A stretch of 64,000 bases of DNA from an uncultured Gemmatimonadaceae bacterium (GTDB taxonomy: Bacteria; Gemmatimonadota; Gemmatimonadetes; Gemmatimonadales; Gemmatimonadaceae): assembly GCA_963740355.1 (NCBI GenBank), contig CAVUDW010000002.1, positions 480,001 through 544,000 of the forward strand. The letters run 5' to 3'. Position 1 is the stretch's first letter. Each line of letters begins with the position of its first letter. Both the position numbers and the translations under genes were made by a program. Below the pieces are notes generated by a model. The model searched no databases and had not been told where the DNA came from. It saw only the letters and a list, made by a program, of their open reading frames with translations. Shown piece by piece: positions 10,163 to 64,000 of this stretch.

Positions 10163-10263
10163 CTCTGTCTCCGGCGGTCAGGCTGCCGGTGCGACATGCA
10201 CCGGTCAGCGAATCGCCGATCTGACACCCCGGTCGTGCGTTGGGTTGCCGTCCCCCGGGACGG

Positions 10264-46624: not shown

Positions 46625-46645
46625 GTTGGTGCCTCGCAAACGCCG

Positions 46646-47404
46646 CTAGCGGACGGACAGGCGCGGGTCGAGTCGCAGGATCATCGTCTTCCTCGCAGCG
46701 ATCAAGCCACTGTAAGACTTGTTGAACCCAGCCGTGCGCACGCGATCCTGGTACCGTTGCCAGTCGCCAAGATTCTGGATGCCGAAGACCCGGACGTAGT
46801 CCCAACCATCAGCGACCAGCATCCGCCCGGTTTCCGACCAACCGAACGACCGCGTCGACTGTTCGAAGGGCCGCACCGCATTCTTCAGCGCGACCTCGAA
46901 GCTGGCCTGCGCACCGGGTGCGAGACGGATGTACTCGAACACTGTGAGGGTCGCCGAGTCGGATGCACTGTCGCTCAGCATCGGGATCATCTCGACGAAC
47001 TGATCGTGATGCGACTGCGTCATCGCTGAGAGTGTCCCGTACAGCGCCAGTGCGGATTTGCCCGAGGCACCCGGGCGGCGCAACCCCTCGTTCGCCGCGT
47101 CCATGCCCGCCATGTTGTCGTAGGAGCTGATCACGACCAGGTCGAGTGGTTCCGGACTCTCCGTCTCCCGATACGCACGAAACTGGCGCATCGCCGGGAT
47201 GTCAGCGTAGATCGGCTTCAACTGTTGCTCGTAGATCGCCATCGCCTCTGCGCTTCTTCCCGGCTGAAAGAGGAAGGTCACGATCTGGCGCACGTTGCTC
47301 GGCGGGAATGTCACTTGCGCCGAGACTGTGCGTGGCGCGCTGACGAGCAGCAGCCCCGCAAGAAGGAACGCGGAGCTCCGCTGGCAGAGGTGTCGCGTCG
47401 TCAC
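46646..47404 (-). CDS. secreted hypothetical protein (dimeric alpha-beta barrel / NIPSNAP-like)
   Basis: GTG start overlaps the matC stop (GTGA); signal peptide; two ferredoxin-like repeats (F.FQPGR / YIRLAPGA). Confidence 0.6.
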   Translation of the reverse strand: MTTRHLCQRSSAFLLAGLLLVSAPRTVSAQVTFPPSNVRQIVTFLFQPGRSAEAMAIYEQQLKPIYADIPAMRQFRAYRETESPEPLDLVVISSYDNMAGMDAANEGLRRPGASGKSALALYGTLSAMTQSHHDQFVEMIPMLSDSASDSATLTVFEYIRLAPGAQASFEVALKNAVRPFEQSTRSFGWSETGRMLVADGWDYVRVFGIQNLGDWQRYQDRVRTAGFNKSYSGLIAARKTMILRLDPRLSVR

Positions 47405-48645: not shown

Positions 48646-48646
48646 C

Positions 48647-50137
48647 TCAGGGCGCTGGCGGCAGCAGGTGTTTCTGCACCTTGCCCAGCGCGGTGCGCGG
48701 GAGCGTGTCGATCCGGACGAATGCGCGGGGAATCTTGAAGGAGGCGAGCTGTGTTCGCAGGTGTGCCTCGAGCGCACTCGCGTCGATGTCGGCGTCGCAC
48801 ACGATGTAGGCTACCGGTACTTCGCCCCGTGACGGGTCCGGGCGTCCGACCACGGTGGCTTCACGGATGCCCGGTTGCTCGAGCAGCAGTTCCTCGATCT
48901 CACGAGGGTAAATGTTGAATCCCCCCGAGATGATCAGCTCACTGCGCCGGCCTTCGAGGGTGATGTACCCATCGGCTGCACGCACGCCGATGTCGCCGGT
49001 GTGAAACCAGCCGTCGGCAAACGCCGTCGCGTTGGCGTCGGGGCGATTCCAGTATCCGCTGCATACGTTTGGCCCCCGCACCCACAACTCACCGCTGGTG
49101 CCATCCGGAACATCGGTGCCACCCTCACTCACGATGCGAACGGAGGTGAGCGAAAGCGGCAACCCGACGGTGCCAGCCCGGCGCTCGCCGACGTAGGGAT
49201 TGCTGACGTTCATCAGCGTCTCGGTCATGCCGTAGCGCTCGAGGATCACATGGCCGAAACGGACCTGAAACGCCTCCAGCACATGCGCGGGTAGCGGAGC
49301 GGAGCCGCAGACGAACAGGCGCGCGTGGTCGCCGATCGTGCGCGCCGTCTCCCCGGCCAGATCCAGCAGGCGGATGTACATCGTCGGCACGCCGAAGAAG
49401 ACGCTCGGTTTGTAGGCGGAGAACAGCTCTGCCGCCTTCGACGCCTCGAAACGCGCCACCAGCTTCATGTGGCAGCCGCTCAGGAGCCAGCAGTGCAGGG
49501 AATTGCCCAGCCCGTGCACGTGAAACAACGGCAGTGCGGTCAGCAGCCGATCGTCGTGGTGCATCGCCCAGCAGGCATTCAGCACCAGCGCATTGCTGGC
49601 AAAGTTTCCGTGCGTAAGGATCGCGCCTTTGGACGCACCGGTCGTTCCCGATGTGTAGACCAGCGCGAGCGGCGTTTCCGCGCCACAAACCGTCGTGTCT
49701 ACGACACTCGGGCGACCATGCGTCGAATCATGTGCGAGCGACTCCCGGGCCAGCACCCCTACATCCCATCCCGGCACTCCAGCTGGAAGATCCGGCATCC
49801 GGTCGGGGGTCGTGATCACGGCAGTCGGGGCTGAATCACCGACGATGTGTGCAATCTCGCGCGACTGATAGAGCACGTTGATCGGCACCACGATCACGCC
49901 CAGCTTCACACAGGCCAGCCACAGATCGATGATCTCGACCCGGTTCGTGAGCAGGAAGGCCAGGCGGTCACCCTGCGACAGCCCGCGATCGTGCAGCGCT
50001 CGTGCCCAGCGATTGCTTCGGTGCTCCAGTTGGCCGAAGGTGAACGATTCGGTCGTTCCGTCCGGCGTGTCGGCATCGAGTGCCACACGATCGGCGGCGC
50101 CGAGCAGGGTGTGATCGAGGAGAGTGAGCAGCGACAC
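48647..50137 (-). CDS. matB: malonyl-CoA synthetase-like acyl-CoA ligase
   Basis: YTSGTTG.SKGA, LPLFHVHGL, GVPTMY.RL, GSAPL, ILERYGMTET, SNPY.GERRAGTVG, GKVQK. Confidence 0.85.
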   Translation of the reverse strand: MSLLTLLDHTLLGAADRVALDADTPDGTTESFTFGQLEHRSNRWARALHDRGLSQGDRLAFLLTNRVEIIDLWLACVKLGVIVVPINVLYQSREIAHIVGDSAPTAVITTPDRMPDLPAGVPGWDVGVLARESLAHDSTHGRPSVVDTTVCGAETPLALVYTSGTTGASKGAILTHGNFASNALVLNACWAMHHDDRLLTALPLFHVHGLGNSLHCWLLSGCHMKLVARFEASKAAELFSAYKPSVFFGVPTMYIRLLDLAGETARTIGDHARLFVCGSAPLPAHVLEAFQVRFGHVILERYGMTETLMNVSNPYVGERRAGTVGLPLSLTSVRIVSEGGTDVPDGTSGELWVRGPNVCSGYWNRPDANATAFADGWFHTGDIGVRAADGYITLEGRRSELIISGGFNIYPREIEELLLEQPGIREATVVGRPDPSRGEVPVAYIVCDADIDASALEAHLRTQLASFKIPRAFVRIDTLPRTALGKVQKHLLPPAP

Positions 50138-50339
50138 GTCTGGTCCGTGGGGTGGCTCGAAGGCTGGAGCGCGCAAGGGGCATGGCGAACGATCGCGCGA
50201 CGTGCCACACGATACCGCCGTTGCGCCTGCTTGGATACTCGCAGGGCTGCGCGGCGTGCTCCATCTTTCTGGGGTGAGTGCCGATGCGTGACGCACATGT
50301 CAGCGCACAGCCCTTCGGCGTCAGCCTGCGGAGCGCGAT

Positions 50340-50684
50340 GTGAAGCGACGATGGATTCGAGAGCGATTCACGGTGGCTGGTGTGCTCGTGCTCGGCGTGG
50401 CGGTCGGATGCCGATCGAGCCGCAGTACCATCGGCACGCCACTTCGTGGAACCCCGCCGACGATATCGTACTCCTGCGGCTCGACGCTCTCACTCCGCGT
50501 TCGGATCGACGCCACCAGCGCCACGATCACCGCCGACGGCGAGGGCCCCTTCACCCTGCCGCAGTCATCCGGGCGAGCGGATTTCACGGTCTATTCCGAT
50601 GACGTCCGTGTGTTGCAGATCTATCGTGGGGAGACATCGTATGGCCTGGTCAGGCGCGTGCTGCATCCCTGTACGCCGGCCTGA
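50340..50684 (+). CDS. small lipoprotein, possibly MliC/PliC-like
   Basis: Lipobox AVGC; YSC near the N-terminus and a Cys near the C-terminus with a beta-rich core. Confidence 0.5.
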   Translation: MKRRWIRERFTVAGVLVLGVAVGCRSSRSTIGTPLRGTPPTISYSCGSTLSLRVRIDATSATITADGEGPFTLPQSSGRADFTVYSDDVRVLQIYRGETSYGLVRRVLHPCTPA

Positions 50685-50712
50685 CAGTCGAGAGTGCTCC
50701 GCCGGCGAGCGG

Positions 50713-50991
50713 CTACTTGAGCAGCGGCAGGAAGAAGAACGCTGCGGCCACAATCGCGATCGCGATCACACCGAACCACGCGACTCGCGAAAGCCCAGTG
50801 CTCGCACCGCGATCCGTACCGCCGACGAGCGTTGGCATGTTTCCGTCCGCCCACGCCTCGACCGCGTCCTTCGCTTCCTTCAACCCCATGCCCGTTCGCT
50901 CGCGCAGGATCTTGATCGCCTCGATCTTTTCTCCGCGCTGCACAGCGGCTATCACATTCGCAGGCAACGGCTCGTGCATCTCGGTGGGCAT
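50713..50991 (-). CDS. small membrane protein with ribosomal L7/L12 C-terminal-like domain
   Basis: AGGAG RBS; KIEAIKILRERTGMGLKEAKDAVE followed by a C-terminal TM helix. Confidence 0.8.
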   Translation of the reverse strand: MPTEMHEPLPANVIAAVQRGEKIEAIKILRERTGMGLKEAKDAVEAWADGNMPTLVGGTDRGASTGLSRVAWFGVIAIAIVAAAFFFLPLLK

Positions 50992-51022
50992 CGAACGGAC
51001 TCCTGATGGAAGAGACGAGCGT

Positions 51023-52594
51023 TCAGCGGCGGGCGTGTGCGACGATCCAGTCTGCGGCGGTGCCAAGCACCACTGGTGACGCGAGATTGGTCGGCAACGT
51101 CGAATAGCCGGACGGGTTGCCCCCCGGCTGATGAATGAAGAGATGATTCAGCTCGGGAAACACGCGCATCGTCACATCGCGATTCCCGCCCGCGCGGAGC
51201 GCCTTCTCCAGGATTGGCGCCTCGGCCGCGATCACCTGCTGGTCGTCGCCGCCCTGCAGAATCAGCACCGGAGTCTTCACCCGCTTGGCGGTTGCGATCG
51301 GATCGTGACTGCCGAAAAAGCTCAGCCACGGCGACGACTTGAGCACTGAGTCCACGGTCACTGGCACATGCGCGAGCATCGAGTCCCGCTTCGCGACCGA
51401 CAACGTCGTGTCGTGCGTGATCGGGTAACCGACCTGGAACAGCAGTATCTCGCGGCCCGTGCGACCCGGTCCCGCCATCAACACGATGCCAGCCAGGGAC
51501 GGATCATCCACCGCCACCATCGGCGCGATCATGCCACCTTCGCTGTGCCCCAGCAGGAAGATCTTCTTCGGGTTCACGTCCGGCCGCGTCCGCAAGTACG
51601 CGATGGCCGCGAGGACGTCGTTCGCGAAGTCGCGGCTGGTCGCAGCGGCAAACGATCCACCCGATTCACCGAACCCTCGATCATCCATGCGCAACATCGC
51701 AATCCCGCGACGGCCGAGGGTATCGGCAACCTGGCGGAACAGTCGATAGCCGAACGGCACGATGCTGATGTACTCGTCGCGATCCTGGGCGCCGCTGCCG
51801 GTGATGCTGATCACGACGGGTTGCGGGCCGGTGGCGCCGTTCGGCTTCGTGAACGTGCCGCCCAGCGTGTGGCCGAACGTCGTTGGCACCGTCACCGTCT
51901 CAGCCGAATACGGCGCACCCGACGGCGCCGAGTAGTCGGGTTTGGCGAAACCGATCTTGCTCACCGCGATTCCATCGACTCGGCTGATCACCGCACCCTG
52001 CGCTGGCACACCGGCGCGGATCACGCGGCCGGTGCTGTCGCAGACGAACCACATCGTCGTTGGCCCAACCGTGGCCGTCACGGAGTCGGTCGTCAGCCCC
52101 GCGAAGGCGACAGGGACCGTGCGGCCGCCAGACGCGAGAAAAATCGATGCCGTGGCGTCTGCCTTGCCCCCTTTCCTGGCTGACACGATCATCGCCTCGA
52201 ACGCGGCGATGGAGCTGTTCACGATCGGCTGTGCGACCGACGACGACAACATGCGCTGTGGCACCGCCGGATTTCCGCCGGCAGAGATCGAGGCCACGGC
52301 TGAATCCCCCTCGATCCTGATTTCGCCGGTTGCCAACGGCGCTGCATCGGCACGCGCGCCAGGCCCGTACGCGGCAAGGGTGAGGGCGCCGAGGTGTCCG
52401 TCGGCCGAGATGCGGTTCGAGAATACCTGCCGCAGGCCGCCCTTCGCGGTCAGCTCACCATCCAGTCGCGTTGGGAGTCGCGTGAACTTCTCGATCTGCA
52501 CCGTGTCGCCGCGTACGACGCTGATGAACGCACTCTGCGCCGATGCCACGGATGCGGGAAGGCAAAGCAGGATGAGTGCGCGGCGGACGGACAT
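51023..52594 (-). CDS. secreted alpha/beta hydrolase (S9/S15-like peptidase or esterase)
   Basis: ITGSGAQDRDE, RMDDRGFGES.G, nucleophile GHSEG, LQGGDDQQV, ELNHLF. Confidence 0.9.
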   Translation of the reverse strand: MSVRRALILLCLPASVASAQSAFISVVRGDTVQIEKFTRLPTRLDGELTAKGGLRQVFSNRISADGHLGALTLAAYGPGARADAAPLATGEIRIEGDSAVASISAGGNPAVPQRMLSSSVAQPIVNSSIAAFEAMIVSARKGGKADATASIFLASGGRTVPVAFAGLTTDSVTATVGPTTMWFVCDSTGRVIRAGVPAQGAVISRVDGIAVSKIGFAKPDYSAPSGAPYSAETVTVPTTFGHTLGGTFTKPNGATGPQPVVISITGSGAQDRDEYISIVPFGYRLFRQVADTLGRRGIAMLRMDDRGFGESGGSFAAATSRDFANDVLAAIAYLRTRPDVNPKKIFLLGHSEGGMIAPMVAVDDPSLAGIVLMAGPGRTGREILLFQVGYPITHDTTLSVAKRDSMLAHVPVTVDSVLKSSPWLSFFGSHDPIATAKRVKTPVLILQGGDDQQVIAAEAPILEKALRAGGNRDVTMRVFPELNHLFIHQPGGNPSGYSTLPTNLASPVVLGTAADWIVAHARR

Positions 52595-52708
52595 GGTGTG
52601 GTTGCTGAAGGGGAGCGGAAACTTCACTCCGCAACGATGGGTCGCGTGGCCGTGCAACTCAAGTGCGCGAGCGGTGCCGTCCCTGTCAGGCGATTCCCCC
52701 GCCGGCGT

Positions 52709-53176
52709 TCATGCCCCGCCTGAAAACCCGACTTGGCGCCACGCTTCGTAAGCCACGATTGCCACGGTGTTCGAAAGGTTGAGACTGCGGCGCGCCGGGA
52801 TCATCGGCAGCCGCAGCCGATGCCCGAGGGGAAATGACGCCAGCATTTCGTCCGTGAGGCCCGTCGATTCCGGGCCGAACACAAAGACGTCGCCTGCTTC
52901 GAACGCCACCGCGGAATAGCGCGTCGTCCCTCGCGCCGAAAACCCGAAGAGCCGGCGACCCTCGCCGAGCGCGGTCAGGCACGTCTGCCAGTCCCGATGA
53001 ATCGCCACCTCTGCAAGGTCCCGATAGTCGAGGCCTGCCCGCTCGAGCTGCTTGTCCTCGAAGTGAAATCCAAGCGGCTCCACCAGGTGCAGGCGCGCGC
53101 CCGTATTCGCGCAGAGCCGAATGACGTTGCCCGTATTGGGCGGGATCTCGGGAGTCATGAGCACGATGTCGAACAC
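52709..53176 (-). CDS. trmL: tRNA (cytidine(34)-2'-O)-methyltransferase
   Basis: PEIPPNTGNVIRLCANTG, RAGLDY, FGPESTGL, RSLNLSN, YEAWRQ. Confidence 0.95.
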   Translation of the reverse strand: MFDIVLMTPEIPPNTGNVIRLCANTGARLHLVEPLGFHFEDKQLERAGLDYRDLAEVAIHRDWQTCLTALGEGRRLFGFSARGTTRYSAVAFEAGDVFVFGPESTGLTDEMLASFPLGHRLRLPMIPARRSLNLSNTVAIVAYEAWRQVGFSGGA

Positions 53177-53234
53177 GATGGCCAATCTCGCTTGGGGTGC
53201 GGTGGAGGTGGCTGCGACTGGTGCGGAGAAGCTG

Positions 53235-54581
53235 TCAGCGAAACCAGCTCACCGCGAGCGCACCGACGCAGGCGACGATCAGGATGATGCTCCCCCAGCC
53301 GCCGATCCGTGTCCACAGGCCATTGCGTGCATCACCCATGATCGACGGATCGCTGGCGAGCAGTTGCAATGCGATCACGTGCAGGGGAAGTAACACCGCG
53401 TTCACGACCTGGCTCATGTAGATGAGCGGGATCAGCGGCAGCCCTGGCAGCGATACCACGCTCACCGCTGCCACTGTCAGCCCGACGAATGCGGCATAGA
53501 ACCACTGAAAGTGATGCGAGTCGAGATCCAGCGACGCTGGTTCGCCCACGCCCTCCGCAATTGAGTATGCCGTCGCGATAGGCACGATCGCCGCGGCCAG
53601 CAATGCGGCCCCGAGCAGCCCCGCGCCGAACAACACGGTCGCGAATCGCCCGGCCAGAGGGCGCAGCGCGGTGGCCGCGTCACCCGCGTCCTTGATGTGA
53701 ATGCCGGCCTTGTTGAGCGTCGCTGCACACGCCACGGCAATTGCGAGGCCGATGATGCCCGTCAGCAGCGATCCGATCACCACGTCAACGCGTGTCCAGC
53801 GCAGGTTGTCGATCGTGATCTTCTTGTCCACCGCATACGACTGAATGAATGCCAGCCCCCACGGCGCGAGTGTGGTGCCGAGGGCCGCGGCGAGGGCGAT
53901 CCATCCCGGCGCGCTGCTCGGCATCTGCGGAATGAGCGAATTGTGCAGAACGGCCGACCAGTCGGGCTTCGCCAGCAATCCATCCACGATGTAGAGCGCC
54001 AGTGTCGAGGAGATCACCAGCAGCACGCGCTCCACACGGTGAAACGAGCCAAGCACCACCACCAGTGAGATCAGGATGCCCGACACCGGGGCGCTGATCC
54101 ATGAGGGAATGCCCACCAGCCCACCCGCGGCCGAGATGCCTGCATACTCGGCGCAGATCGTCCCGAAGTTTGCGAAGAGCAGGCCGACGACGGCGGCGTA
54201 GCCGGCACCCTTGCCCCATCGCTCGCGAATGATGCCGACGAATCCCTTGCCTGTCGCCGCCCCGATGCGCACCGCCATCAGGTGGAACTGCACCAGCAGG
54301 ATCGTTGACGCCGGGATGATCCAGAGCAACGAGTAACCGAAGTCGGTGCCAAGCACCGAATAGGTCGTGATGCCCGCCGGGTCATCGTCTGAAAGCCCAG
54401 CTAACAATCCGGGGCCGAGGACAGCGAGAAAGGCGACCAGCGCTCCACGCCCCGACGATCGGAACTGGGCAAACTTCAGTGCGATGCCGCGCTGGTGATG
54501 CGCGACCGCATGCGGCGGCGCCCCGGCCTTCTCACGACGACGGCGCGCGGCGCGTTGCGCCTTGCTGTGGATGGATGTCAC
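53235..54581 (-). CDS. NRAMP family divalent metal transporter
   Basis: GPGL...SDDDPAGITTYS..G, RIGAATGKG, LGTTLAPW, SQVVNAVLLP. Confidence 0.88.
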   Translation of the reverse strand: MTSIHSKAQRAARRRREKAGAPPHAVAHHQRGIALKFAQFRSSGRGALVAFLAVLGPGLLAGLSDDDPAGITTYSVLGTDFGYSLLWIIPASTILLVQFHLMAVRIGAATGKGFVGIIRERWGKGAGYAAVVGLLFANFGTICAEYAGISAAGGLVGIPSWISAPVSGILISLVVVLGSFHRVERVLLVISSTLALYIVDGLLAKPDWSAVLHNSLIPQMPSSAPGWIALAAALGTTLAPWGLAFIQSYAVDKKITIDNLRWTRVDVVIGSLLTGIIGLAIAVACAATLNKAGIHIKDAGDAATALRPLAGRFATVLFGAGLLGAALLAAAIVPIATAYSIAEGVGEPASLDLDSHHFQWFYAAFVGLTVAAVSVVSLPGLPLIPLIYMSQVVNAVLLPLHVIALQLLASDPSIMGDARNGLWTRIGGWGSIILIVACVGALAVSWFR

Positions 54582-54700
54582 AGCTGGATCATAACCACGA
54601 GCGGGTCACTTCCTTCGGATCACCGTGAGCGTAGAGGATTCCGCTGACGTGCCAGTCGCCCTCTTTTGCCGTGCTGGTCCGGGCACTCTATTCCGCCCCC

Positions 54701-55930
54701 ATGACAACGCCGACGCCACGATGGCCCGCAGCATACACCGTCGTGCTGCTCTGTTTCGCAGCCGCGTTCATCTCCTACATCGATCGCTCCAACCTCTCGG
54801 TCGCGGCGATCGCGATGAAGGAGGAGTTCCACTGGACGGAGACGACGAAGGGTTTCGTCCTCTCGTCGTTCTTCGTGGGCTACATGCTGCTGCAGATCGT
54901 GAGCGGCATGATCGCGAATCGATATGGGGGCAAGATCCTGCTTGGTGTGGCGGTCGTCTGGTGGTCGATCTTCACCATGCTCACGCCCGCCGCGGCGTAC
55001 ACCTCGCTGGGTGCGCTGATCGCGGCGCGCATCGCCCTCGGCCTCGGCGAGGCGGCGGTCTTTCCTGGCTGCATCAACCTCATCGGGCGATGGGTACCTG
55101 TCGAGCAGCGATCACGCGCGGTCTCGCTGGTCACGAGCGGGTTGTCGCTTGGCACGGTGTTCTCGCTGCCGGTGACGGGCTACCTCGTACGTACCTACGG
55201 TTGGCCGAACCCATTCTACCTCTTCGGTGCAGTCGGCCTGGTGTGGGCTCTGGCCTGGTTTCCGCTGATCGGCAACGGTCGCGGCATTCCCGAGGAGGTG
55301 CCGCCCACGGCTGACCGCACCATCCCGTGGGCCGCGTTGCTCCGAACACCGGCGGTGTGGGCGATCTTCGTCAATCACTTCGCGCATAACTGGCTGCTGT
55401 ACGTGCTGCTGGCGTGGCTGCCGAGTTACATCAAGGCCACCTTCGGTGTGTCACTGGCCACGGCGGGGCTACTGTCGGCGGCACCGTCGTTCGTGATGTT
55501 CGTGACGGCCAATGTCGCCGGCGCCGTGGCCGACACACAAATCGCGGCAGGCCGCAATCGAACCAGCGTCCGCAAGCTGCTGCAATCGATCGGGTTGTTC
55601 GGCGCCGCCACCTTCCTCTTGCTGGTGCCGTTCGCATCGTCCACCACGATGGGCGTGTTGCTGATGTGTGGCGCGTCGGGGTCGCTCGGCGTCTGCGCCG
55701 GCGGATTCAGCTCCAACATGTTCGATGTCGCTCCACGCCACGCCGAGATCATCTGGGGCATCAGCAACACCTCGGCCACCATCCCAGGGATCGTCGGAGT
55801 GGCGGCGACCGGCTGGATGGTCGAGCGGACCGGCAGCTACGTCTCGGCATTCGTCCTGACAGCGGCGATTGCCGTGTTTGGCGGTATCGTCTTTCTGGTC
55901 GCGGGGTCGGGGGAGCGGAAGGTCGCGTAG
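54701..55930 (+). CDS. MFS transporter (ACS/SLC17-like)
   Basis: ISYIDRSNLSVA, LSSFFVGY, RIALGLGE...FP, WLPSY, GISNT.ATIPGIVGV. Confidence 0.92.
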   Translation: MTTPTPRWPAAYTVVLLCFAAAFISYIDRSNLSVAAIAMKEEFHWTETTKGFVLSSFFVGYMLLQIVSGMIANRYGGKILLGVAVVWWSIFTMLTPAAAYTSLGALIAARIALGLGEAAVFPGCINLIGRWVPVEQRSRAVSLVTSGLSLGTVFSLPVTGYLVRTYGWPNPFYLFGAVGLVWALAWFPLIGNGRGIPEEVPPTADRTIPWAALLRTPAVWAIFVNHFAHNWLLYVLLAWLPSYIKATFGVSLATAGLLSAAPSFVMFVTANVAGAVADTQIAAGRNRTSVRKLLQSIGLFGAATFLLLVPFASSTTMGVLLMCGASGSLGVCAGGFSSNMFDVAPRHAEIIWGISNTSATIPGIVGVAATGWMVERTGSYVSAFVLTAAIAVFGGIVFLVAGSGERKVA

Positions 55931-56112
55931 TTTCCGCTGTTCCCCGCGTTCGTCCTGACAAGGACCCGCTGTCGGTGCTCGGCACGACGTCTTGCCTTCG
56001 GCGACCCCGCGGCATCCCGCTTGCGCTCGCTCGGAGTAGCCGGTAGCTCTGCACCGAACGTGCGCTGGCCCTTCGGCCAACACGCGGCACCGCCCATCTC
56101 AATGATCACCCC

Positions 56113-58032
56113 GTGACAATTTCCTGGATCGATTGGGTCATCGCGATCGCCAGTATTCTGGTCTGCTTCGTTCCGGCGCTTTTCCTCGCCAAGCGATCCG
56201 CCACGAGCACGACGGAGTTCTTTGCCTCGGGTCGCAGCGTGCCGTGGTGGCTGGCTGGCCTGTCGATGGTGGCGACGACGTTTTCGTCCGACACCCCGAA
56301 CTGGGTGACGGAGCAGGTGCGGCGCTACGGGGTGGCGGGCAACTGGCAGTGGTGGGCCTTCGTGCTCACCGGCCTCGCGACGGTGTTCTTCTTCGCGCGT
56401 CTCTGGCGTCGATCGGGGGTATTGACCGACCTCGAGTTCTATGAGCTCCGCTATTCCGGAAAGTCGGCGTCGGTGGTGCGCGGATTCCGTGCCGTCTATC
56501 TGGGCCTGTTTTTCAACTGCTTCATCATGGGCACCGTTACGCTGGCGGCGTGCAAGATTGCCAACATCCTGTTCGGCATGCCCGCGTGGCAGACGATCCT
56601 GTTTTGCGGTGTGTTGAACGTCGTGTTTGCAGCACACTCCGGCCTGTGGGGCGTGCTGGTGATCGACATGATCCAGTTCTTCATCAAGATGACGGCCGTG
56701 TTTGCGGCGGCATTCTTCTCACTGGTCGAAGTCGGACGCCGGCTCGGTGGCGAGGCCAGCGCCTGGGTTGGGCTCAAGCTGCTGGTCGGCAAGTTGTCGA
56801 CGCTGCAGGTGGTGCAGTCCACTGCAGCCAATGCACAGCCTGTGATGTCTACAGCTGATGGGAGCGGCCAGCCGATCCTCAACATGCTGCCGAACTTCAG
56901 CATGTCCGATTTGGCGCTGATGATCTTCATCATGCCGATCGCGATCAGCTGGTGGGCGAACTGGTATCCTGGCGCCGAGCCAGGCGGCGGATCATACATC
57001 GCGCAGCGCATGCTGGCGTCCAAGTCGGAGAAGGACGCGTTGGGCGGCACCCTGTTCTTCAACGTCGCGCACTATGTGCTGCGACCGTGGCCGTGGATCA
57101 TCACTGCCTTGTGCTCGATCATCGTCTATCCCGATCTGGCATCGATCAAGGCCGCGTTCCCGAATGCCGATGTCTCACTGATCGGGCACGACTCGGCGTT
57201 CCCGGCGATGCTCAAGTTCCTGCCGGTTGGTTTCGTCGGCTTGATGATCGGCGGCCTGCTGGCCGCCAACAGCTCGACGATCCTGACGCACCTGAACTGG
57301 GGCTCGTCATATCTGGTGCACGATTTCTATCGCCGCTTCATCCGTAAGGACGCGTCGGAGACGCACTATGTGAACGTCGGGCGTTTGTGCACGGTGGGCC
57401 TCTACCTGTTCGCGGCGTTACTCAGCCTCACGCTCAGCTCCGCGCAGCAGGCCTTCCAAGTGTTGTTGTCGATCGGCGCCGGTACCGGCCTGCTCTACAT
57501 CGCGCGCTGGTTCTGGTGGCGGGTGTCGGCGTGGTGTGAGATCGTGGCCATGTTCATGTCGCTGGCGACATCGCTGGCTGTCCCGTACTTCATGCCCGGC
57601 GCCAGCTTCGCCACCACCACCATCTGGCAGGTGGGCATCACTACGATCGCTTGGTTGGTCACCGCATACGTCGGGCCCGTGACCGATCGCGCGACTTTGA
57701 TCTCATTCGTGCAGAAGGTAAAGCCGGCCGGGCCTGGCTGGACGGAGATCAGAAAGGCCGCTGGCATTTCTGATGCGGAAGTTGCGCTCGAGAATCGTGT
57801 CGGTGGCGCGTTGGCTGGTTGGATCTCAGGCTGCGTGCTGATCTGGTCCGCACTGTTCGCGATCGGCAACTTCCTCTACGCGCCCGGCGATCCGTCACGC
57901 TGGCCGGCGGCGTGGATGCTGTTGGGCGTGTTCGTCGTGAGCGGGTTGGTCTTGCTGCGCGTGACGAAGCAGTTGTGGGCGGATAGTACTGCGAGTCAGG
58001 TGCGGGAGGATGCGCGGGTAGCGAAGGGGTGA
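56113..58032 (+). CDS. sodium:solute symporter family protein
   Basis: FFASGRSVPWWLAGLSMVATTFSSDTP, LWRRSGVLTDLEFYELRYSG, EPGGGSYIAQRML, ST..THLNWGSSY. Confidence 0.93.
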   Translation: MTISWIDWVIAIASILVCFVPALFLAKRSATSTTEFFASGRSVPWWLAGLSMVATTFSSDTPNWVTEQVRRYGVAGNWQWWAFVLTGLATVFFFARLWRRSGVLTDLEFYELRYSGKSASVVRGFRAVYLGLFFNCFIMGTVTLAACKIANILFGMPAWQTILFCGVLNVVFAAHSGLWGVLVIDMIQFFIKMTAVFAAAFFSLVEVGRRLGGEASAWVGLKLLVGKLSTLQVVQSTAANAQPVMSTADGSGQPILNMLPNFSMSDLALMIFIMPIAISWWANWYPGAEPGGGSYIAQRMLASKSEKDALGGTLFFNVAHYVLRPWPWIITALCSIIVYPDLASIKAAFPNADVSLIGHDSAFPAMLKFLPVGFVGLMIGGLLAANSSTILTHLNWGSSYLVHDFYRRFIRKDASETHYVNVGRLCTVGLYLFAALLSLTLSSAQQAFQVLLSIGAGTGLLYIARWFWWRVSAWCEIVAMFMSLATSLAVPYFMPGASFATTTIWQVGITTIAWLVTAYVGPVTDRATLISFVQKVKPAGPGWTEIRKAAGISDAEVALENRVGGALAGWISGCVLIWSALFAIGNFLYAPGDPSRWPAAWMLLGVFVVSGLVLLRVTKQLWADSTASQVREDARVAKG

Positions 58033-58066
58033 GGTAGCTCAACCCGAACCGTGTCAAGGCATTGAT

Positions 58067-58303
58067 ATGAGAAATGCGATTTTCTTGCCAGGCAGTTTGA
58101 TCGCGAAAGCGGATGTCTTGGCGGCGCGCGTCGGAATGTCGAGATCACAGCTCTGTGAGGCTGCGATTGTTGCATTTCTCGCAAGATCCAGTGACGCTGG
58201 TGTCACGGCCGCGTTGAACCGGGTGTACTCGATGCCGTATAAGCCAGACGCATTGCTTGCCAAGGCGACTCGTGCTGCATTGCGACGGTCAGAATGGACC
58301 TGA
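58067..58303 (+). CDS. ribbon-helix-helix antitoxin (ChpI/MazE6-like), orphan
   Basis: MRNAIFLP...AD.LA...GMSRSQL...A...FL......VT..LNRVY...W matches the ChpI-type pattern; no toxin ORF follows. Confidence 0.7.
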   Translation: MRNAIFLPGSLIAKADVLAARVGMSRSQLCEAAIVAFLARSSDAGVTAALNRVYSMPYKPDALLAKATRAALRRSEWT

Positions 58304-58378
58304 AGGCAGAGACTTTCGACTGGTAAAGAGGCAGTTCCGCTCGTGATTACGGAACCGCTTTCGATCAGCGCAGATTGC

Positions 58379-59227
58379 CTATTCCTTTTTCGGAAGTTCG
58401 CTGAGGATCTGCAGGAGTGCCAGTACCAGTCTTGGTGCGCCTCGGTATCCATCCAGCCCGCCGGAGGCAAGCTCAGATGCCATGGCGTGCATCAGACCGT
58501 ACGCCGGGCCGTCGCCTTCGTAGATCGTCTGGTGAAGTAATTCGAGATTGATCGAGATTTCAGTGCGTCCGTTCTCGCGCAGCCGTCCATATGCTTCCAG
58601 CGCGTCGCGCCAGACCGGATCTCGCGCCCAGTTTTCGGCGGATACGCTACTCGAGTGACGCATGGCCACTGGGGCTTTTTCCTCGACACTGTGAGCTTGC
58701 ACTTCAGCTGGCTCAGCCTGACTCTGCAGTGGGTAGATCTCGAACTCTTTGTCATTCTTTTCGGAGACGAAAAACACGAATGATCGGTGAATGCCTCTGA
58801 CCACGTGCGGTTTGAAGCGGTTCGCTTTCCGAAGACTGGCCCAGTCGTATCGCCAGACTTTTCTCGGAGAGTAGTTATCGTTGAGGCTGACAAAGACCAA
58901 ACCGTCTGGGCCGTCTTCGCTATCAGCTGTTGGAATCGCACTTGTTTTCTGCCACCCTGACGCGCGTCCGCGTCTGGTTTTCACGGAAAGTCTGCCGCCA
59001 TCAGTCGCAGCCAAGTCATGTTCGTGCGACTCATCGAGCAGAGCGCCTCCAATGATCACCTTGGCGTACATCTCACCGAGCGCCGCGACTTACTCAGACC
59101 CCTTGAAGTTCTTCTCTGGCGCGTATCGCTGGATTGCATGTCGGACGCGCTCCTGAAACGCCTCCTGTCCCGAAAATAGCTGTGTGAATTCTGCTACGAC
59201 CTGCTCGATCCGGTTCCCTGTGTTCAT
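58379..59227 (-). pseudogene. putative PD-(D/E)xK-like nuclease gene interrupted by an in-frame TAA
   Basis: ORFs 59090..59227 and 58379..59071 share a frame and are separated only by TAA at 59090-59092: ...KNFKGSE*VAALGEMYAK...HDL...LSVKTR. Confidence 0.6.
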
Positions 59228-59255
59228 TGGTGAGATTTTCCCCTTTGAGCGGTTG

Positions 59256-60593
59256 TCATGCGCACGAGTGAACGCTGGTGCTAGAGTGGTAGAGTCCGGA
59301 TAGTCGACCACGTGCCACACGGAACTGACTTCGCTTCTTCACTTTGGGCGACGTAGAAACATCCTCGACTTTGATTCCGGGGTCGTAGTAGATGGAACCG
59401 TCGGCAATCGCACGCATCGCAAGCGCGTAGTCGGTTCCTTCGGCGAGAAGTACTTTCTCTCCGTATCGATAGCCGATGTCCGGTGTGTCCCGCTTTATCG
59501 CGGGAACGAAGACGGCCCGCGAGTGCTTTCGAGTCCAGTGCGAAAGTAGCCCTGCAAAGGTCCACGATGCGGCGACTTCACCGTCATCCGTCAGCAATAC
59601 CACTGCTCCGTCAGATCGAGTAATTTTCCCCGAAGGCGCATCGTAGCCATCCATTCGCATCGTCAGGCCGGTCGCGGCGCATCTGATGCCGGTACGGTGA
59701 ATGCCACCAAAATTGATCCGGTCGTCACGACCGCGCTTGTCCGCGTATCCAAAACGCTGCAAGAATTCGATAGGCTCAAGAACTGAGTATGCTCCCCCGT
59801 TTGGCTCAGGGGTCATCAGAGTCACTGCACCCGTCCCCTCGCGATCGAAGGACGCGACCGTGTGGGCTTTCACCTCCCATCCATCAAAGTCCGGCTCAGA
59901 CCGTCCGTTCGCGGTGATTCCGAGCTCCGATTCCAGCGTGACACCGACGCAGTTCCGGGCAACACAAGGAATGCGCTCACCAGCCTTGGTCAGACGCCAT
60001 CCTTGAATCCAACCTTCCCGCGAAATCCTGCAGAGGGCGGAAAGCAGCCGGCCGCGCGAGTCGGCGAGGGAGGTCCCCGAGTCGAGAGGTACGCGCATCA
60101 GCACGCCAACCTCATCAAGTGAATGAAGCGCAGCGAGCTCTCGGGCGATCGCGGAATCCTCCGGAACTGCATGGCCGATCACACGTCGGTCGACCGTCAC
60201 CCCCAAAAGCAGGACGCGACCTACGGCGCGGCCAGCAAGCAGGTCGTTCGGCGAGAGGGCGGCGCCCTTCAGAAATCCTGAAAGCCGGACTTCCGGATAC
60301 TGAGGGTAAAGAATCAGCCGAGCTTCTGGTGCTGGGCAGACCTCGCCAGAGGCAGTCAGCCAGCTGAGTCGTAGCGGTGCCTTGAAGATGGGGGTGTCGT
60401 GGGTGCCGCTCGTGGTGGCTTCGGGCGGTTCTGTCGGAATGACGTTGATGACCCTGAAGTCACCCCCGAGGTAAATCTGATTCTTGCTGTTGTCGTTTGG
60501 ACTCAGCCGTTTCGCGAACAACTGTCGGACACCCTGGTGGCGCAGGGCGGCAGTGAGCTGCGCGAGTGACATTGATGAGTCGTGAATAGACAT
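59256..60593 (-). CDS. MvaI/BcnI family restriction endonuclease with extra N-terminal domain
   Basis: GVTLESELGITANGRSEPDFDGWEVK (PD-ExK), VTLMTPEP, W.RKH..AVFVP, IYYDPGIK, KKRSQFR; N-terminal AKRLSPNDNSKNQIYLGG. Alternative start at 60572. Confidence 0.85.
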   Translation of the reverse strand: MSIHDSSMSLAQLTAALRHQGVRQLFAKRLSPNDNSKNQIYLGGDFRVINVIPTEPPEATTSGTHDTPIFKAPLRLSWLTASGEVCPAPEARLILYPQYPEVRLSGFLKGAALSPNDLLAGRAVGRVLLLGVTVDRRVIGHAVPEDSAIARELAALHSLDEVGVLMRVPLDSGTSLADSRGRLLSALCRISREGWIQGWRLTKAGERIPCVARNCVGVTLESELGITANGRSEPDFDGWEVKAHTVASFDREGTGAVTLMTPEPNGGAYSVLEPIEFLQRFGYADKRGRDDRINFGGIHRTGIRCAATGLTMRMDGYDAPSGKITRSDGAVVLLTDDGEVAASWTFAGLLSHWTRKHSRAVFVPAIKRDTPDIGYRYGEKVLLAEGTDYALAMRAIADGSIYYDPGIKVEDVSTSPKVKKRSQFRVARGRLSGLYHSSTSVHSCA

Positions 60594-60596
60594 CGC

Positions 60597-60625
60597 TTGA
60601 CGGCGGGAGAAAAAGCGGACATTAT
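60597..60625 (+). promoter_or_regulatory. sigma70-type promoter giving a leaderless methyltransferase mRNA
   Basis: TTGACG (60597-60602), 17 bp spacer, CATTAT (60620-60625), 6 nt, ATG 60632; no SD sequence. Confidence 0.65.
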
Positions 60626-60631
60626 GACGCC

Positions 60632-61903
60632 ATGCAATATACCGAACAAACCCCGGCGCTCCTTCAGCAGGCACTGATGCGCTACTCGCAGGGCGAGATC
60701 GCGTCGATGTTGGATGTCAACGTCCGTCAGGTCAGGCGGTGGATCGTCGGCGAGAGCAAGCCGAAGTCGGTTTACCTCAGCCTGCTACAGAAGGAGCTAT
60801 CGCCGGAGCCGATCCTTCGCCAGCCCAGCTTCCAGTTCATTGATTTGTTCGCGGGCATCGGTGGTCTCCGTCGCGGTTTCGAGTCAATGGGCGGCGAGTG
60901 TGTCTTTACCAGCGAATGGGACAAGAACTCCGTCCGCACGTACTCAGACAACTTCCCGGATGGGCATGACATCTGGGGCGACATCACGCAGATCGCACCG
61001 GAAGCCATTCCCGAGCACGACATTCTGCTCGGCGGCTTTCCCTGTCAGCCTTTCAGCCTCGCTGGAGTCAGCAAGAAAAACAGTCTTGGCCGAGCCCATG
61101 GCTTTCTCGACAAAGCACAGGGTACGCTGTTCTTCAACGTGCTCAGCATTTTGAAGGCAAAGCGCCCTGCGGGCTTCTTGCTAGAGAACGTGAAGAACCT
61201 GAAGAGTCACGACGGCGGTCGGACTTACCAGGTAATCAGGGGGGCTCTCGAGGAACTGGGGTATCAAGTAGAAGACCGCATCATTGATTCTCGGCCTTGG
61301 GTGCCGCAGCGCCGTGAACGCATCTTTCTGGTGGGCTTCCGGAAACACGTCCAATTCTCATTCGATGAGATGGCGGTACCGAAGCAGGGGCCGACGCTTG
61401 GCTCGATTCTGCATTCGAAGGACGAGGAACCGGAAGGCCACTTCACCAAGACTGTTCGCGGAAAGACGGTCGTGGATGAGCGGTATACGCTGTCCGACCA
61501 TCTCTGGAAATACTTGCAGGACTATGCCGCCAAGCACCGAGCCGCCGGCAATGGCTTCGGCTGCAGTGTTTTCGATGCGAATGACGTCGCTCGGACGTTG
61601 TCGGCTCGGTACCACAAAGACGGCAGCGAGATTCTGATTAAGCAGCACAAGAAGAACCCGCGTCGCCTCACCCCGCGCGAATGCGCACGTCTCATGGGTT
61701 TCGATCGCGTAGGTCGTGAGCCGCACATCATCCCGGAGACCATGTCGGACACCCAGGCGTACCGTCAGTTCGGGAACTCTGTGGTAGTGCCGGTCGTCGA
61801 GGAGATTGCGAAGATCATGGTGCCAAGGATCGTAAGCCCTGAGCGCTATAAGCCCATTCCACGACTACAGCTGGAGTTCCTTGCCACGGGCACCGAGGGC
61901 TGA
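60632..61903 (+). CDS. dcm: DNA (cytosine-5)-methyltransferase, Dcm/M.EcoRII-like, with N-terminal HTH
   Basis: Motifs I FIDLFAGIGG, IV GFPCQPFS, VI ENVKNL, VIII PQRRERIF, IX RRLTPRECARLMGF, X AYRQFGNSV; Dcm-like TRD TLSARYHKDGSEIL; N-terminal SQGEIASMLDVNVRQVRRW HTH. Confidence 0.95.
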   Translation: MQYTEQTPALLQQALMRYSQGEIASMLDVNVRQVRRWIVGESKPKSVYLSLLQKELSPEPILRQPSFQFIDLFAGIGGLRRGFESMGGECVFTSEWDKNSVRTYSDNFPDGHDIWGDITQIAPEAIPEHDILLGGFPCQPFSLAGVSKKNSLGRAHGFLDKAQGTLFFNVLSILKAKRPAGFLLENVKNLKSHDGGRTYQVIRGALEELGYQVEDRIIDSRPWVPQRRERIFLVGFRKHVQFSFDEMAVPKQGPTLGSILHSKDEEPEGHFTKTVRGKTVVDERYTLSDHLWKYLQDYAAKHRAAGNGFGCSVFDANDVARTLSARYHKDGSEILIKQHKKNPRRLTPRECARLMGFDRVGREPHIIPETMSDTQAYRQFGNSVVVPVVEEIAKIMVPRIVSPERYKPIPRLQLEFLATGTEG

Positions 61904-62312
61904 TCCGCCGGTGTCCGCAGCGCGATCGCGCAATATGGCGGCGATACGCGGAAAGGACACAAAGCCAGAAATGCTCGTGCGGAGCTGGGTGCATCGACGC
62001 GGATTCAGATTCAGGCTACACGCGAAGGGAATGCCTGGTAGCCCTGACCTTGTACTTGCGAGACACCGTACCGTCGTCTTCGTTCACGGCTGCTTCTGGC
62101 ACTCGCACGGCTGCTCGAACTCCGTCGTCCCCCAGACTCGACGCGAGTTCTGGGTAGAGAAGCTCGGCCGCAACGTGGCGCGTGATGCCAAGAATTTTAG
62201 AGAGTTAACAGAACTCGGATGGCGCGTGTTTGTTGTATGGGAGTGCGACCTGAGAAAGCATCCAGAGCGCACGCTCTCGCGGCTGACCGCGCGCCTCTCG
62301 AACACTGACTGA
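61881..62312 (+). CDS. vsr: very short patch repair endonuclease
   Basis: RSRNMAAIRGKDTKPE, GFRFRLH, PG.PDLV, FVHGCFWH.H.C, N.ARD, GWRV.VVWEC. Confidence 0.95.
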   Translation: MPRAPRADPPVSAARSRNMAAIRGKDTKPEMLVRSWVHRRGFRFRLHAKGMPGSPDLVLARHRTVVFVHGCFWHSHGCSNSVVPQTRREFWVEKLGRNVARDAKNFRELTELGWRVFVVWECDLRKHPERTLSRLTARLSNTD

Positions 62313-62323
62313 TCCGTATTCAG

Positions 62324-63043
62324 CTACTCCGCCTTTCGAAATCTCTCGAATTCCTTTGGCAGAAGCTTGAGCAGTCTATCCATCGGCATCGCGTAGATAT
62401 CGAAGGTGAGATCTAGCTGCATAAGAACTTCGGCAAGCCGGCGCGGGGAGCCGCGCCCTGCGCCACCAGAGCCTTTCTTCCTACGACCAGTCGACTGGTC
62501 AACGTAGAGAGAGTTCGAGAGCGACAAAACCGTGGCAGAAGTGGCGAGTTCCATTCGAGACGCGATTTGCTCGTAGATCTCGCCTGGCTTGTGCAGGCTG
62601 CCGCCAAGGAGCGCACGTGCCCGTTCGGGATTGTCGCGATGCGCCGTGAGGATCTGCCACGGGCCTGCCAACAGATGCCGGTAGTACGTGCGATAATCCG
62701 TGCCAGTAGGTACGTATCGAGCGCGCTGGCCCAGCTTTCTGACGCCGTTGCTTGTCGGGCATACTTGGTCGAAGTACACGAGAGTGAGCCACGCCCACAT
62801 GCCAGAATCCGCCTGAACACGAATATCGGGAGCGTTGCCCATCAGGCTGAGGGAATACGTTGCCCAATCAAAACGCGTCTCAAACACACGCGGCTCTGCG
62901 ATGTCGCCATAGCCAGTTGACTCAACCAGCGCGCCTGGATTCACGAGCTCTTCTGGCACGCTTGTCGCTCTCTCATTCTGAATCGCATCGAGCCAGCGAT
63001 TCATTTCGGCAATGCCTTTAGGACGCAGTCTGTTTAGGCTCAC
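62324..63043 (-). CDS. hypothetical protein (last gene of unknown operon)
   Basis: 239-aa ORF; GTG start overlaps the upstream stop (GTGA); motifs D.GMWAWL.L.YFDQ.CP, YYRHLLAGP, EQIASR, RRL..VL.QLD.T.D. Confidence 0.8.
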   Translation of the reverse strand: MSLNRLRPKGIAEMNRWLDAIQNERATSVPEELVNPGALVESTGYGDIAEPRVFETRFDWATYSLSLMGNAPDIRVQADSGMWAWLTLVYFDQVCPTSNGVRKLGQRARYVPTGTDYRTYYRHLLAGPWQILTAHRDNPERARALLGGSLHKPGEIYEQIASRMELATSATVLSLSNSLYVDQSTGRRKKGSGGAGRGSPRRLAEVLMQLDLTFDIYAMPMDRLLKLLPKEFERFRKAE

Positions 63044-63801
63044 GCATCACTTCCATCAGTCAGTGTAGCGCCGTACTTCTCGGCGAATCGCTGTTGGCGG
63101 CAGAAGGCTTTCACTGCATCCTCAACCCAGTCCGCTCGGGCATCGTCAGAGGAGTCGGCATCAGGAACGTCACATACTCCAGGCAAACGAATGGCGAACG
63201 CTGTCCAGTCCGAATGCCAGTCCTTTTCGTCGGAGTCAAGATCTTCGAGCGCCTTGGACAGTATGCGTCGAAATAGCTCAGGATACACGAGGCTCCGAAA
63301 CGCAACCGACTGGACCGCCTGCCTCCAATCACCAAGGCGATTGTTCACCACAAGCGTTGGTCCGGCTCGAGTTTCGTCGAAGTCCAGCCGCCACGTTGCT
63401 TCATCAAGATCGTCGCCACGCGTGTTCAACAAGGACCGGCGCCCTGCATCGCGCGGGTCGGCGCTCGTCACCGGAACGCGGTCGGCCTCAGCCCAGATTC
63501 GACCGTCTTCGCGGCCTCCACTCAGGATCTTGACCCTGAATTGAACTCCGTCTGGGTCACCGAACGCGTCAAGCCTGCACGCGGTCGCCGCTCGGACAAA
63601 GCCAACCGTTCCGAATTCATACCTCCGCCAAGTCGTCTGGCGGTAGGCTTCAACGACTACCAAGCACTCCGACGGTAGCGCGTAGCTCGACAGGTTAATC
63701 TTCGCATCGAACGCAGCACTGTCTGCATCGCGAACGATTGTAATTCCAACGTCCGCGCGCTCAATTCGCTTCCGGTTCGTCCAGTTAAGTCGCTGGGGCA
63801 T
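63040..63801 (-). CDS. hypothetical protein (middle gene of unknown operon)
   Basis: 253-aa ORF; GGGGAG RBS; start overlaps the upstream gene; beta-rich N-terminal half and helical acidic C-terminal half. Confidence 0.8.
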   Translation of the reverse strand: MPQRLNWTNRKRIERADVGITIVRDADSAAFDAKINLSSYALPSECLVVVEAYRQTTWRRYEFGTVGFVRAATACRLDAFGDPDGVQFRVKILSGGREDGRIWAEADRVPVTSADPRDAGRRSLLNTRGDDLDEATWRLDFDETRAGPTLVVNNRLGDWRQAVQSVAFRSLVYPELFRRILSKALEDLDSDEKDWHSDWTAFAIRLPGVCDVPDADSSDDARADWVEDAVKAFCRQQRFAEKYGATLTDGSDA

Positions 63802-64000
63802 CGAGCTCCCCGGTGGTAGCGATTCTGAGTGCCAGATCGCGGTTCATGTCAAACCCGATGATGGAGACACGGAAGTCCGGATCCGTAACCTCGTATCTCA
63901 CTTTGTTCTCGCTTACAGTGAGCGCGCGGAGCCCATGGATATCAGTTGGATCGCCGACGCCGTCTCGCATGAGCAGGAAATCGGCAGGATCGTACTTCGC
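63785..64000 (-). CDS. 3' end of a larger hypothetical protein (starts outside window)
   Basis: The frame stays open to the window edge (…AKYDPADFLLMRDG…GFDMNRDLALRI…); its stop overlaps the start of 63040..63801. Confidence 0.65.
   Translation of the reverse strand, partial: AKYDPADFLLMRDGVGDPTDIHGLRALTVSENKVRYEVTDPDFRVSIIGFDMNRDLALRIATTGELDAPAT

Follow-up and report, generated by a model that had tools for sequence, protein, structure and literature searches.

A three-gene operon recurrently joined to C5-cytosine methylases and Vsr, assigned by sequence to a divergent branch of the phage defence candidate PDC-M33

What does a compact three-gene operon do beside a cytosine methylase and a Vsr endonuclease? 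The question is raised by one edge of a 64,000-nucleotide stretch of DNA (that whole stretch is called the window here) from an uncultured Gemmatimonadaceae bacterium (NCBI GenBank assembly GCA_963740355.1, contig CAVUDW010000002.1, positions 480,001 to 544,000, forward strand). A preliminary description, made from the letters of the window, had proposed an unrecognised, translationally coupled operon that might be a new defence system cooperating with the neighbouring methylation genes. The three overlapping minus-strand open reading frames (ORFs) on which it was based were seen again in the ORF list and in the sequence, and we call them C, B and A in the order of their coordinates:

62324..63043, minus strand: gene C, 239 aa, GTG start, product predicted to be mostly helical
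63040..63801, minus strand: gene B, 253 aa, ATG start
63785..64000, minus strand: 3' end of gene A (last 71 codons, 71 aa), open at its 5' side in the window

Genes A and B overlap by 17 nt (63785-63801), and genes B and C overlap by 4 nt (GTGA, 63040-63043). C is convergent with vsr, and 11 bp separate the two stop codons (62313-62323). The first gene had been described as cut by the window edge, which was correct. The upstream sequence was fetched (the continuation, L002), and it gave a full gene A of 642 aa with its ATG at window-equivalent 65713 (L002 3785-5713).

Related loci were collected by a C-seeded scan of one genome per species, and the best 80 of 164 loci were kept. They come from Verrucomicrobiota, Planctomycetota, Chloroflexota, Acidobacteriota, Gemmatimonadota, Nitrospirota and other phyla. 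By tblastn and ORF calling, 59 of the 80 loci carry A, B and C with this gene order, all on one strand. All three genes are full-length in 51 loci; an A/B overlap is present in 44 of these, 20 times with the exact length of 17 nt, and a B/C overlap in 41, 31 times with the exact length of 4 nt. The proposed coupled operon was thus borne out, as the gene order and the overlaps are kept in related loci. The predicted A, B and C proteins are made in fixed stoichiometric coupling, and one of them carries ATPase-like motifs. Database searches returned 39 homologues of B and 161 of C at E ≤ 1e-3; with these homologues, and with overlaps that recur across loci, the ORFs are more than chance.

The protein sequences are conserved as well. 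In an alignment of 22 sequences, the N-terminus of C is kept (residues 2-13 conserved, R5 in at least 90% and G10 invariant), which supports the GTG start that overlaps the stop codon of B. The database copy of C is 226 aa long and its N-terminus is missing. The motifs that had been quoted as conserved-looking in the 239-aa protein are conserved in this alignment, where W83, W85, F91, Y121-R122-H123-L124-L125, Q159 and R202 are invariant. The same holds for the basic stretch RLNWTNRKRI of the 253-aa protein, in which T8 is invariant and N6 and R10 are kept in at least 90%.

The neighbours of the cassette were identified in two ways. Pfam and PADLOC scans took in three genes on each side of the cassette, 143 proteins in all, for the first 24 well-flanked loci; a locus counted as well-flanked when each of its two flanks measured 3 kb or more, as in 40 loci. 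Hidden Markov models (HMMs) of Dcm and Vsr were also built from the neighbour sequences and run on the six-frame ORFs of every locus. The neighbour scan found a C5-cytosine methyltransferase in 20 of the 24 loci and Vsr in 12; three loci had EcoRII-type endonucleases, one had an endonuclease of the MvaI/BcnI type and one an HNH protein. With the HMMs, Dcm was found within 200 bp of the cassette in 34/59 loci and within 3 kb in 46/59, and Vsr within 200 bp in 13/59 and within 3 kb in 39/59. For the well-flanked loci, Dcm lies within 3 kb in 33/40 and within 5 kb in 34/40, and Vsr lies within 5 kb in 30/40. The outer flanks, more than 5 kb away and 308,511 bp in all, gave 1 Dcm match. Dcm shares the strand of the cassette in 36 of 46 cases, of which 20 have it directly upstream and 16 downstream; in the other 10 it is downstream and convergent, as in the window. 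The adjacency to dcm and vsr, which had been suggested as a check, supports the proposed cooperation with the methylation system. Few other defence genes were found by PADLOC among the 143 neighbours (AbiE, an NsnC-like gene, the HNH protein, a mad2-like methyltransferase and a generic DEAD-box helicase), so the association is specific to the methylase and is not a general defence-island effect.

The methylases themselves are diverse. Counting the one in the window, there are 44 Dcm partners, which form three divergent clusters and three singletons:

Dcm cluster 1: 16 loci, ~525 aa, mostly downstream
Dcm cluster 2: 14 loci, ~590 aa, directly upstream
Dcm cluster 3: 11 loci including the window, EcoRII-Dcm-like, ~420 aa

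An EcoRII- or MvaI/BcnI-type endonuclease is present in 11/11 cluster-3 loci (the window and 10 others) and in 0/30 loci of clusters 1 and 2. Half of the latter (15/30) were scanned three genes deep, and one HNH protein was all that appeared. Since the endonucleases are missing there, the methylase in these 30 loci has no conserved partner other than A-B-C. The cytosine methylases to which the A-B-C genes are repeatedly joined differ in specificity, and a classical endonuclease may or may not accompany them. The cluster-1 partners gave their best PADLOC scores against the DrmMII models (E 1e-85 to 1e-124).

In clusters 1 and 2 the methylases have 510-630 aa, of which 100-200 aa are not covered by PF00145 (for example L015 5548-7395 and L041 10696-12261). 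The extra part is a C-terminal extension in cluster 2 and an N-terminal region or an insert in cluster 1, and it belongs to no family. These extra regions could be a docking site for A-B-C.

An independent, A-seeded sample of the phylum gave five full triads outside the source genome, two of them with adjoining Dcm and Vsr. Several branches of the superfamily show the Dcm linkage, which is not universal.

Protein A is the member of the cassette that can be compared with named proteins. Its family HMM recovered a large superfamily: 7,063 representative clusters are matched at E ≤ 1e-3, of which 1,707 still qualify at E ≤ 1e-30. The invariant residues fall into three groups, Q43 N44 D47 A48 (with E40 in at least 90%), E109 D110 G115 G118, and G152 G155 G157 K158. 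The corresponding stretches of the alignment, LVREgiQNslDA, fEDfGTxGLxGD and GRWGvGK, are GHKL-like in order and style. Further on, E439-x-x-x-H443 is invariant ('ENPAH'); then come a linker rich in proline and, at the C-terminus, a conserved domain of ~100 aa. On the basis of motifs only, A is a putative GHKL/paraMORC-like ATPase. Matches in the ESM Atlas were only clusters of 'hypothetical protein', and for A there was no more than a lead of 0.86 to HATPase_c_3 clusters. One relative of A, P0244 (959 aa), is fused to an extra N-terminal domain with GHKL-type motifs read from its sequence; this domain matches a PADLOC REase_II model. Searches for A found no match in 50,697 phage records and one distant match among 72,556 plasmids.

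PADLOC matched A of the window to PDC-M33A with E 3.1e-9. The same model was matched by 23/23 homologues of A (E 2.2e-9 to 2.5e-25), although most members align only to the N-terminal ~290 of the 627 profile positions. By the account of the preprint that introduces them, PDCs are 145 phage defence candidates derived from genes that lie inside BREX, DISARM and Type I restriction-modification (RM) systems (bioRxiv 10.1101/2024.01.29.577857). Literature searches found no paper that names PDC-M33 or DUF6339.

A genome of the same class, G303 (2.9 Mb), was informative about what PDC-M33 is. It has a bona fide DUF6339 gene (PF19866 E 5e-38) in a locus where a Dcm (433 aa) is followed on one strand by proteins of 661, 284 and 260 aa. 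The PADLOC scores of these three against PDC-M33A, PDC-M33B and PDC-M33C are 1.1e-99, 1e-39 and 3.6e-36. This gene order and these scores indicate that PDC-M33 is an A-B-C triad of the same layout. A of the window aligns with PDC-M33A of G303 at an hhalign probability of 98.5% over residues 34-447, and the ENPxH motif persists in this bona fide PDC-M33A (hhalign). Both kinds of triad have three overlapping genes on the same strand, of ~640-660, 250-285 and 240-260 aa. Their A proteins are homologous, and Dcm is directly adjacent at both PDC-M33-type loci of G303, in the second of which it comes right after the DUF6339 gene. At the level of sequence, the operon is a divergent branch of the PADLOC candidate PDC-M33. 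The view that it was wholly unrecognised had to be given up, because PADLOC knows the PDC-M33 triad A-B-C and one copy of it lies directly beside Dcm. The word fails for A, a distant homologue of PDC-M33A, and it still fits B and C, for which the libraries (Pfam, PADLOC, NCBIfam) gave no match and no named family.

The kinship has clear limits. The PDC-M33B model was matched by 0/24 B sequences and the PDC-M33C model by 0/22 C sequences, those of the window included, so the triads differ in B and C, while the match of A is distant and mostly N-terminal. B resembles PDC-M33B in position and size only. Because B and C are unmatched and A is matched in part, the PADLOC models would miss the operon as a system. 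A distant triad on a Rhizobium plasmid was related to the window cassette for B (hhalign 98.9%) and for C (99.4%), and its A matched PDC-M33A with E 9e-20. In G303 we counted three A-type cassettes. Two are of the PDC-M33 type (L119 and L118/L128), both directly beside Dcm and one spanning contig ends, and L134 is a sister-clade triad without Dcm.

Pfam gave no match for A, B or C, and the NCBIfam scan, which covered B, C and the 71-aa tail of A, gave none either. The structure model of B (predicted local distance difference test, pLDDT, 89.1) has an N-terminal immunoglobulin (Ig)/Fn3-like beta-sandwich followed by a C-terminal helical domain. Residues ~10-115 gave VIA-align Z 7-9 to the Fn3 and Ig-like domains of GH2 enzymes, which is a generic similarity, and Foldseek found nothing for B at E ≤ 0.001. 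The model of C has a pLDDT of 91.9 and a predicted template modelling score of 0.88. No relative of it was found in the PDB (Foldseek best E 3.4; VIA-align best Z 3.9 over 48,161 chains) or among viral structures (BFVD best E 2.4), and the predicted fold of C is apparently new. Profiles of B and C against PDB sequences gave nothing meaningful. C had no match in the plasmid records, and a search for fused or longer forms of it returned none, which is weak evidence. C of the window did not match DUF6339 (PF19866, gathering cut-off 23.2 bits) even at E ≤ 10. A precomputed PF19866 mark is present on 6 of the 120 listed C homologues, and on rescan one of the six gave E 0.082, below the cut-off. By these weak marks, C and DUF6339 may be remote homologues.

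C-like proteins also occur in a two-gene variant, in which a ~695-aa GAF-domain protein is followed by a 247-aa C-like protein that shares 36-39% identity with C. It was found in 8 loci (L048, L062, L064, L067, L069, L072, L077, L078; in L072 at 7901-9988 and 10001-10744), mostly of Planctomycetota including Kuenenia. Here A and B are replaced, and no Dcm or Vsr is nearby. The GAF domain was found in 3/3 scanned partners of C-like proteins. The GAF-domain partner was considered as a relative of A or B and rejected, as it is similar to neither.

How might such a cassette work with a methylase? In our judgement there is about an even chance that A-B-C is an ATP-dependent, paraMORC-like and RM-like immunity module, for which 5-methylcytosine (m5C) from the neighbouring Dcm is the self mark. 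A would be a GHKL/paraMORC-like ATPase whose middle domain bears the E-x-x-x-H motif. B would be an adaptor built of an Ig-like sandwich and a helical domain, and C a novel-fold DNA-binding or effector subunit, rich in basic and aromatic residues. The three proteins would form a complex, A would hydrolyse ATP, unmethylated DNA would be the target, some component or Vsr would cut it, and the outcome would be defence. The methylase would supply the mark and possibly the sequence recognition, and A-B-C would supply the ATP-driven response. The pairing of a conserved A-B-C with unrelated Dcm clades would then be explained, because the mark, and maybe the recognition, would come from the methylase.

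Such a role has a precedent in prediction. A 2008 paper predicted RM roles for GHKL ATPases of the paraMORC type that occur with DCM and VSR (Iyer, Abhiman, Aravind, PMC2292703), and in the discussion of the Tiamat preprint the RM role of paraMORC remains a proposal. As PMC2292703 describes them, paraMORC operons resemble the A-B-C loci in the large GHKL-motif ATPase with cytosine methylases and Vsr-family endonucleases, and in the sporadic, laterally mobile distribution. The same paper places an ExxxH motif late in the S5 domain of paraMORC2, and by this published description the invariant E439/H443 of 'ENPAH' in A resembles it. There are also differences. Most paraMORC operons are described there with superfamily II (SF-II) helicases and recognisable nucleases, whereas neither is conserved around A-B-C. 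Partners like B or C are not named in sections 4 and 5 of PMC2292703, and A is undetected by Pfam HATPase_c_3. By analogy, the operon would belong conceptually with the predicted paraMORC-Dcm-Vsr systems.

Two other comparisons were made. BREX, DISARM, Hma and MADS combine a methyltransferase with a multi-protein, ATP-using effector and have no classical endonuclease. The A-B-C loci are similar in having a methylase and a proposed ATP-using effector of several proteins, and the cluster-1 Dcm is closest to the DrmMII models. None of the PADLOC models for the components of these four systems matched A, B or C. Mza, reported by Gao and colleagues in 2020, is said to be a defence operon with a MutL-like ATPase, Z1 and AIPR. 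It resembles the operon in having a GHKL-type ATPase (A by its motifs) in a multi-gene operon, and it differs in that A does not match MzaB and genes for Z1 or AIPR are absent. MzaB was weakly matched only by the separate N-terminal GHKL domain of P0244 (E 0.0025).

Several results weigh against an m5C-keyed immunity module. For the ATPase, 0/24 members of the A family match any Pfam GHKL family even at E ≤ 10, HATPase_c_3 included, and a PDB sequence search with the A profile gave nothing. The hhalign probability was 7% for A against the N-terminal part of MutL and 19% against three GHKL proteins; the GHKL motifs of A do line up with the GHKL proteins in these 7-19% alignments. For the effector, library scans recognised no nuclease domain in A, B or C. 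For the kinship with a defence candidate, the hhalign probabilities of B against PDC-M33B (0.5%) and C against PDC-M33C (0.25%) mean no detectable homology, and the preprint describes PDCs as untested (bioRxiv 10.1101/2024.01.29.577857). The counts of loci are not independent, because the loci are C-seeded and limited to the best 80 of 164, and many are related. The similarity of Dcm tracks that of A weakly (Spearman 0.18), and with such divergent Dcm clades a shared sequence specificity is unlikely unless the methylase supplies it. There are also cassettes that stand alone. Three of the five A-sampled triads (L132-L134) have no Dcm or Vsr within ~7 kb, and their nearest methylases are of the N6 type at 3.3 kb in one and more than 20 kb away in two. 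Six of the 40 well-flanked loci lack both Dcm and Vsr (L033, L045, L052, L070, L074, L080), four of them from Fuerstiella or other Planctomycetaceae, and no methylase was present among the genes scanned around the Rhizobium triad. Because Dcm-less cassettes exist, m5C cannot be obligatory for the whole superfamily.

A bolder form of the same proposal can be put forward only tentatively, as a possibility on the doubtful side. Here A-B-C and Dcm would be a new class of ATP-dependent, m5C-keyed restriction without a classical endonuclease. The paraMORC-like clamp A, the Ig adaptor B and the novel-fold C would tell self from non-self by the mark, and the methylase's own target recognition may also serve. 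Cutting would be done by an unrecognised active site in the ExxxH domain of A, or in C. Alternatively, the complex would license nicking by Vsr, a MutL-MutH-like logic rebuilt on Dcm and Vsr. If restriction of this kind is true, it would bring a new effector mechanism and a new fold into methylation-based immunity. The proposal matters in its broader form too. None of the many members of the A superfamily has a function backed by a test, B and C fall into no family, and C is without a structural relative. The recurrent joining of the cassette to cytosine methylases makes the 18-year-old prediction of paraMORC RM-like immunity testable, and it possibly explains many apparent 'orphan' Dcm-Vsr pairs in environmental bacteria.

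Among the alternatives, the one that survives best is that A-B-C is an autonomous defence module, or another mobile-island module, which travels together with methylase RM cassettes and makes no use of m5C. We consider this unlikely. The Dcm-less triads (L033, L045, L052, L070, L074, L080, L132-L134 and the Rhizobium plasmid) speak for it, and it fits Dcm partners from three unrelated clades with weak co-variation. PDCs are defined by embedding in other defence systems, according to the preprint (bioRxiv 10.1101/2024.01.29.577857), and the window locus already has an endonuclease of its own. Mere co-travel does not sit well with an operon-like adjacency, in which Dcm lies within 200 bp in 34/59 loci and on the same strand in 36/46, or with a Dcm link that recurs in separate branches of the superfamily. 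The link is also specific to PF00145 methylases and Vsr, with few other defence genes in the 143 neighbours, and it fades outside the locus, as 308 kb of outer flanks held 1 Dcm match.

It is improbable, in our estimate, that the operon is a repair accessory for m5C damage, in which a MutL-like A complex would help Vsr at T:G mismatches and the whole would be a portable very-short-patch kit. Vsr within 5 kb in 30/40 well-flanked loci, the 11 bp between C and vsr in the window and the GHKL-type motifs of A would suit such a kit. However, Dcm is both nearer and commoner than Vsr (within 200 bp, 34/59 versus 13/59), Dcm occurs without detected Vsr in loci such as L009, L017, L019, L021, L029, L031, L034 and L060, and triads without Dcm and Vsr exist. 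The source genome also encodes a MutL-like protein of ~581 aa elsewhere, and the patchy distribution of A (1/61 and 8/301 genomes, see below) fits accessory immunity better.

Least probable, and far from likely, is an epigenetic reader or maintenance role, by MORC-like compaction and silencing or by an addiction that stabilises the island, with invaders not destroyed: prokaryotic paraMORCs are related to eukaryotic MORCs as described in PMC2292703 and A is GHKL-like at the motif level, MORCs condense and silence DNA as reported in PMC8277788, A, B and C have no recognisable nuclease, and the pairing of C-like proteins with a GAF-domain protein suggests a signalling context, but the low-GC island around the cassette contains RM genes and insertion sequence (IS) debris, and the closest named relative of the cassette is itself a defence candidate.

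The RM genes on which the operon converges in the window are the following:

61881..62312, plus strand: vsr (Pfam Vsr, PF03852, E 8.4e-27; TIGR00632 E 1.6e-42; PADLOC Vsr E 3.3e-39)
60632..61903, plus strand: dcm, C5-cytosine DNA methyltransferase with an N-terminal helix-turn-helix (HTH) (PF00145 E 4.4e-78; TIGR00675 E 2.9e-91)
59256..60674, minus strand: MvaI/BcnI-family restriction endonuclease (PF15515 E 1.3e-35, residues 213-462), divergent from dcm

The Type II unit beside the cassette is complete, as PF00145, PF15515 and PF03852 are all above their cut-offs. The dcm gene is the sole PF00145 gene found in the source genome, and it lies ~420 bp from C. The endonuclease (59256-60674) has an extra N-terminal region of ~210 aa without assignment. 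Its longest ORF overlaps the divergent start of dcm by 43 bp, and its true start is probably further in. The N-terminal HTH of Dcm (weak matches to HTH_28 and HTH_3) would suit autoregulation.

From about 58000 in the window to window-equivalent 70000, the GC content is 0.53-0.63, against ~0.62-0.67 on both sides. The cassette is in this low-GC island of ~12 kb, which is horizontally acquired. The island contains a 230-aa ORF, the endonuclease, dcm, vsr, C-B-A, two unconserved ORFs, IS debris and a HATPase_c_3 protein. A is present in 1/61 sampled genomes of the taxonomic family and in 8/301 genomes of the phylum, the window's own included. Patchy and island-like distribution, low GC and the adjoining IS debris indicate that the cassette is accessory. 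No tRNA was found in window 46000-64000, and promoter- or terminator-like sites are no commoner than in shuffled sequence. No RNA run is listed for the stretch, and one sediment DNA run contains 0.29 of the sampled words.

The left edge of the island (window 58067-59071) has a plus-strand ORF of 78 aa and the minus-strand ORF of 230 aa, and the latter had no match in Pfam, PADLOC or NCBIfam. Upstream of A, ORFs of 74 aa and 317 aa were considered as parts of the system and rejected, since neither has a counterpart in any of the 80 related loci. Short overlapping minus-strand ORFs at L002 7186-8400 (window-equivalent 67186-68400) look by eye like a broken transposase or IS. Beyond them, L002 8441-10219 (window-equivalent 68441-70219, minus strand) encodes a 592-aa bona fide GHKL ATPase (HATPase_c_3 E 5.9e-7) with weak PADLOC matches to TmtA, and the IS debris lies between it and the operon.

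Two further neighbours were seen in related loci. In L032, C is directly followed by a HATPase_c_3/HATPase_c protein of 696 aa. A PIN-domain gene of ~136 aa stands directly upstream of A, on the same strand, in 5 of the 24 scanned loci (L004 6935-7354, L005 6890-7300, L019 6610-7011, L050 6699-7109 and L051 6932-7342), and it could be a toxin-antitoxin neighbour or an additional component of one subtype.

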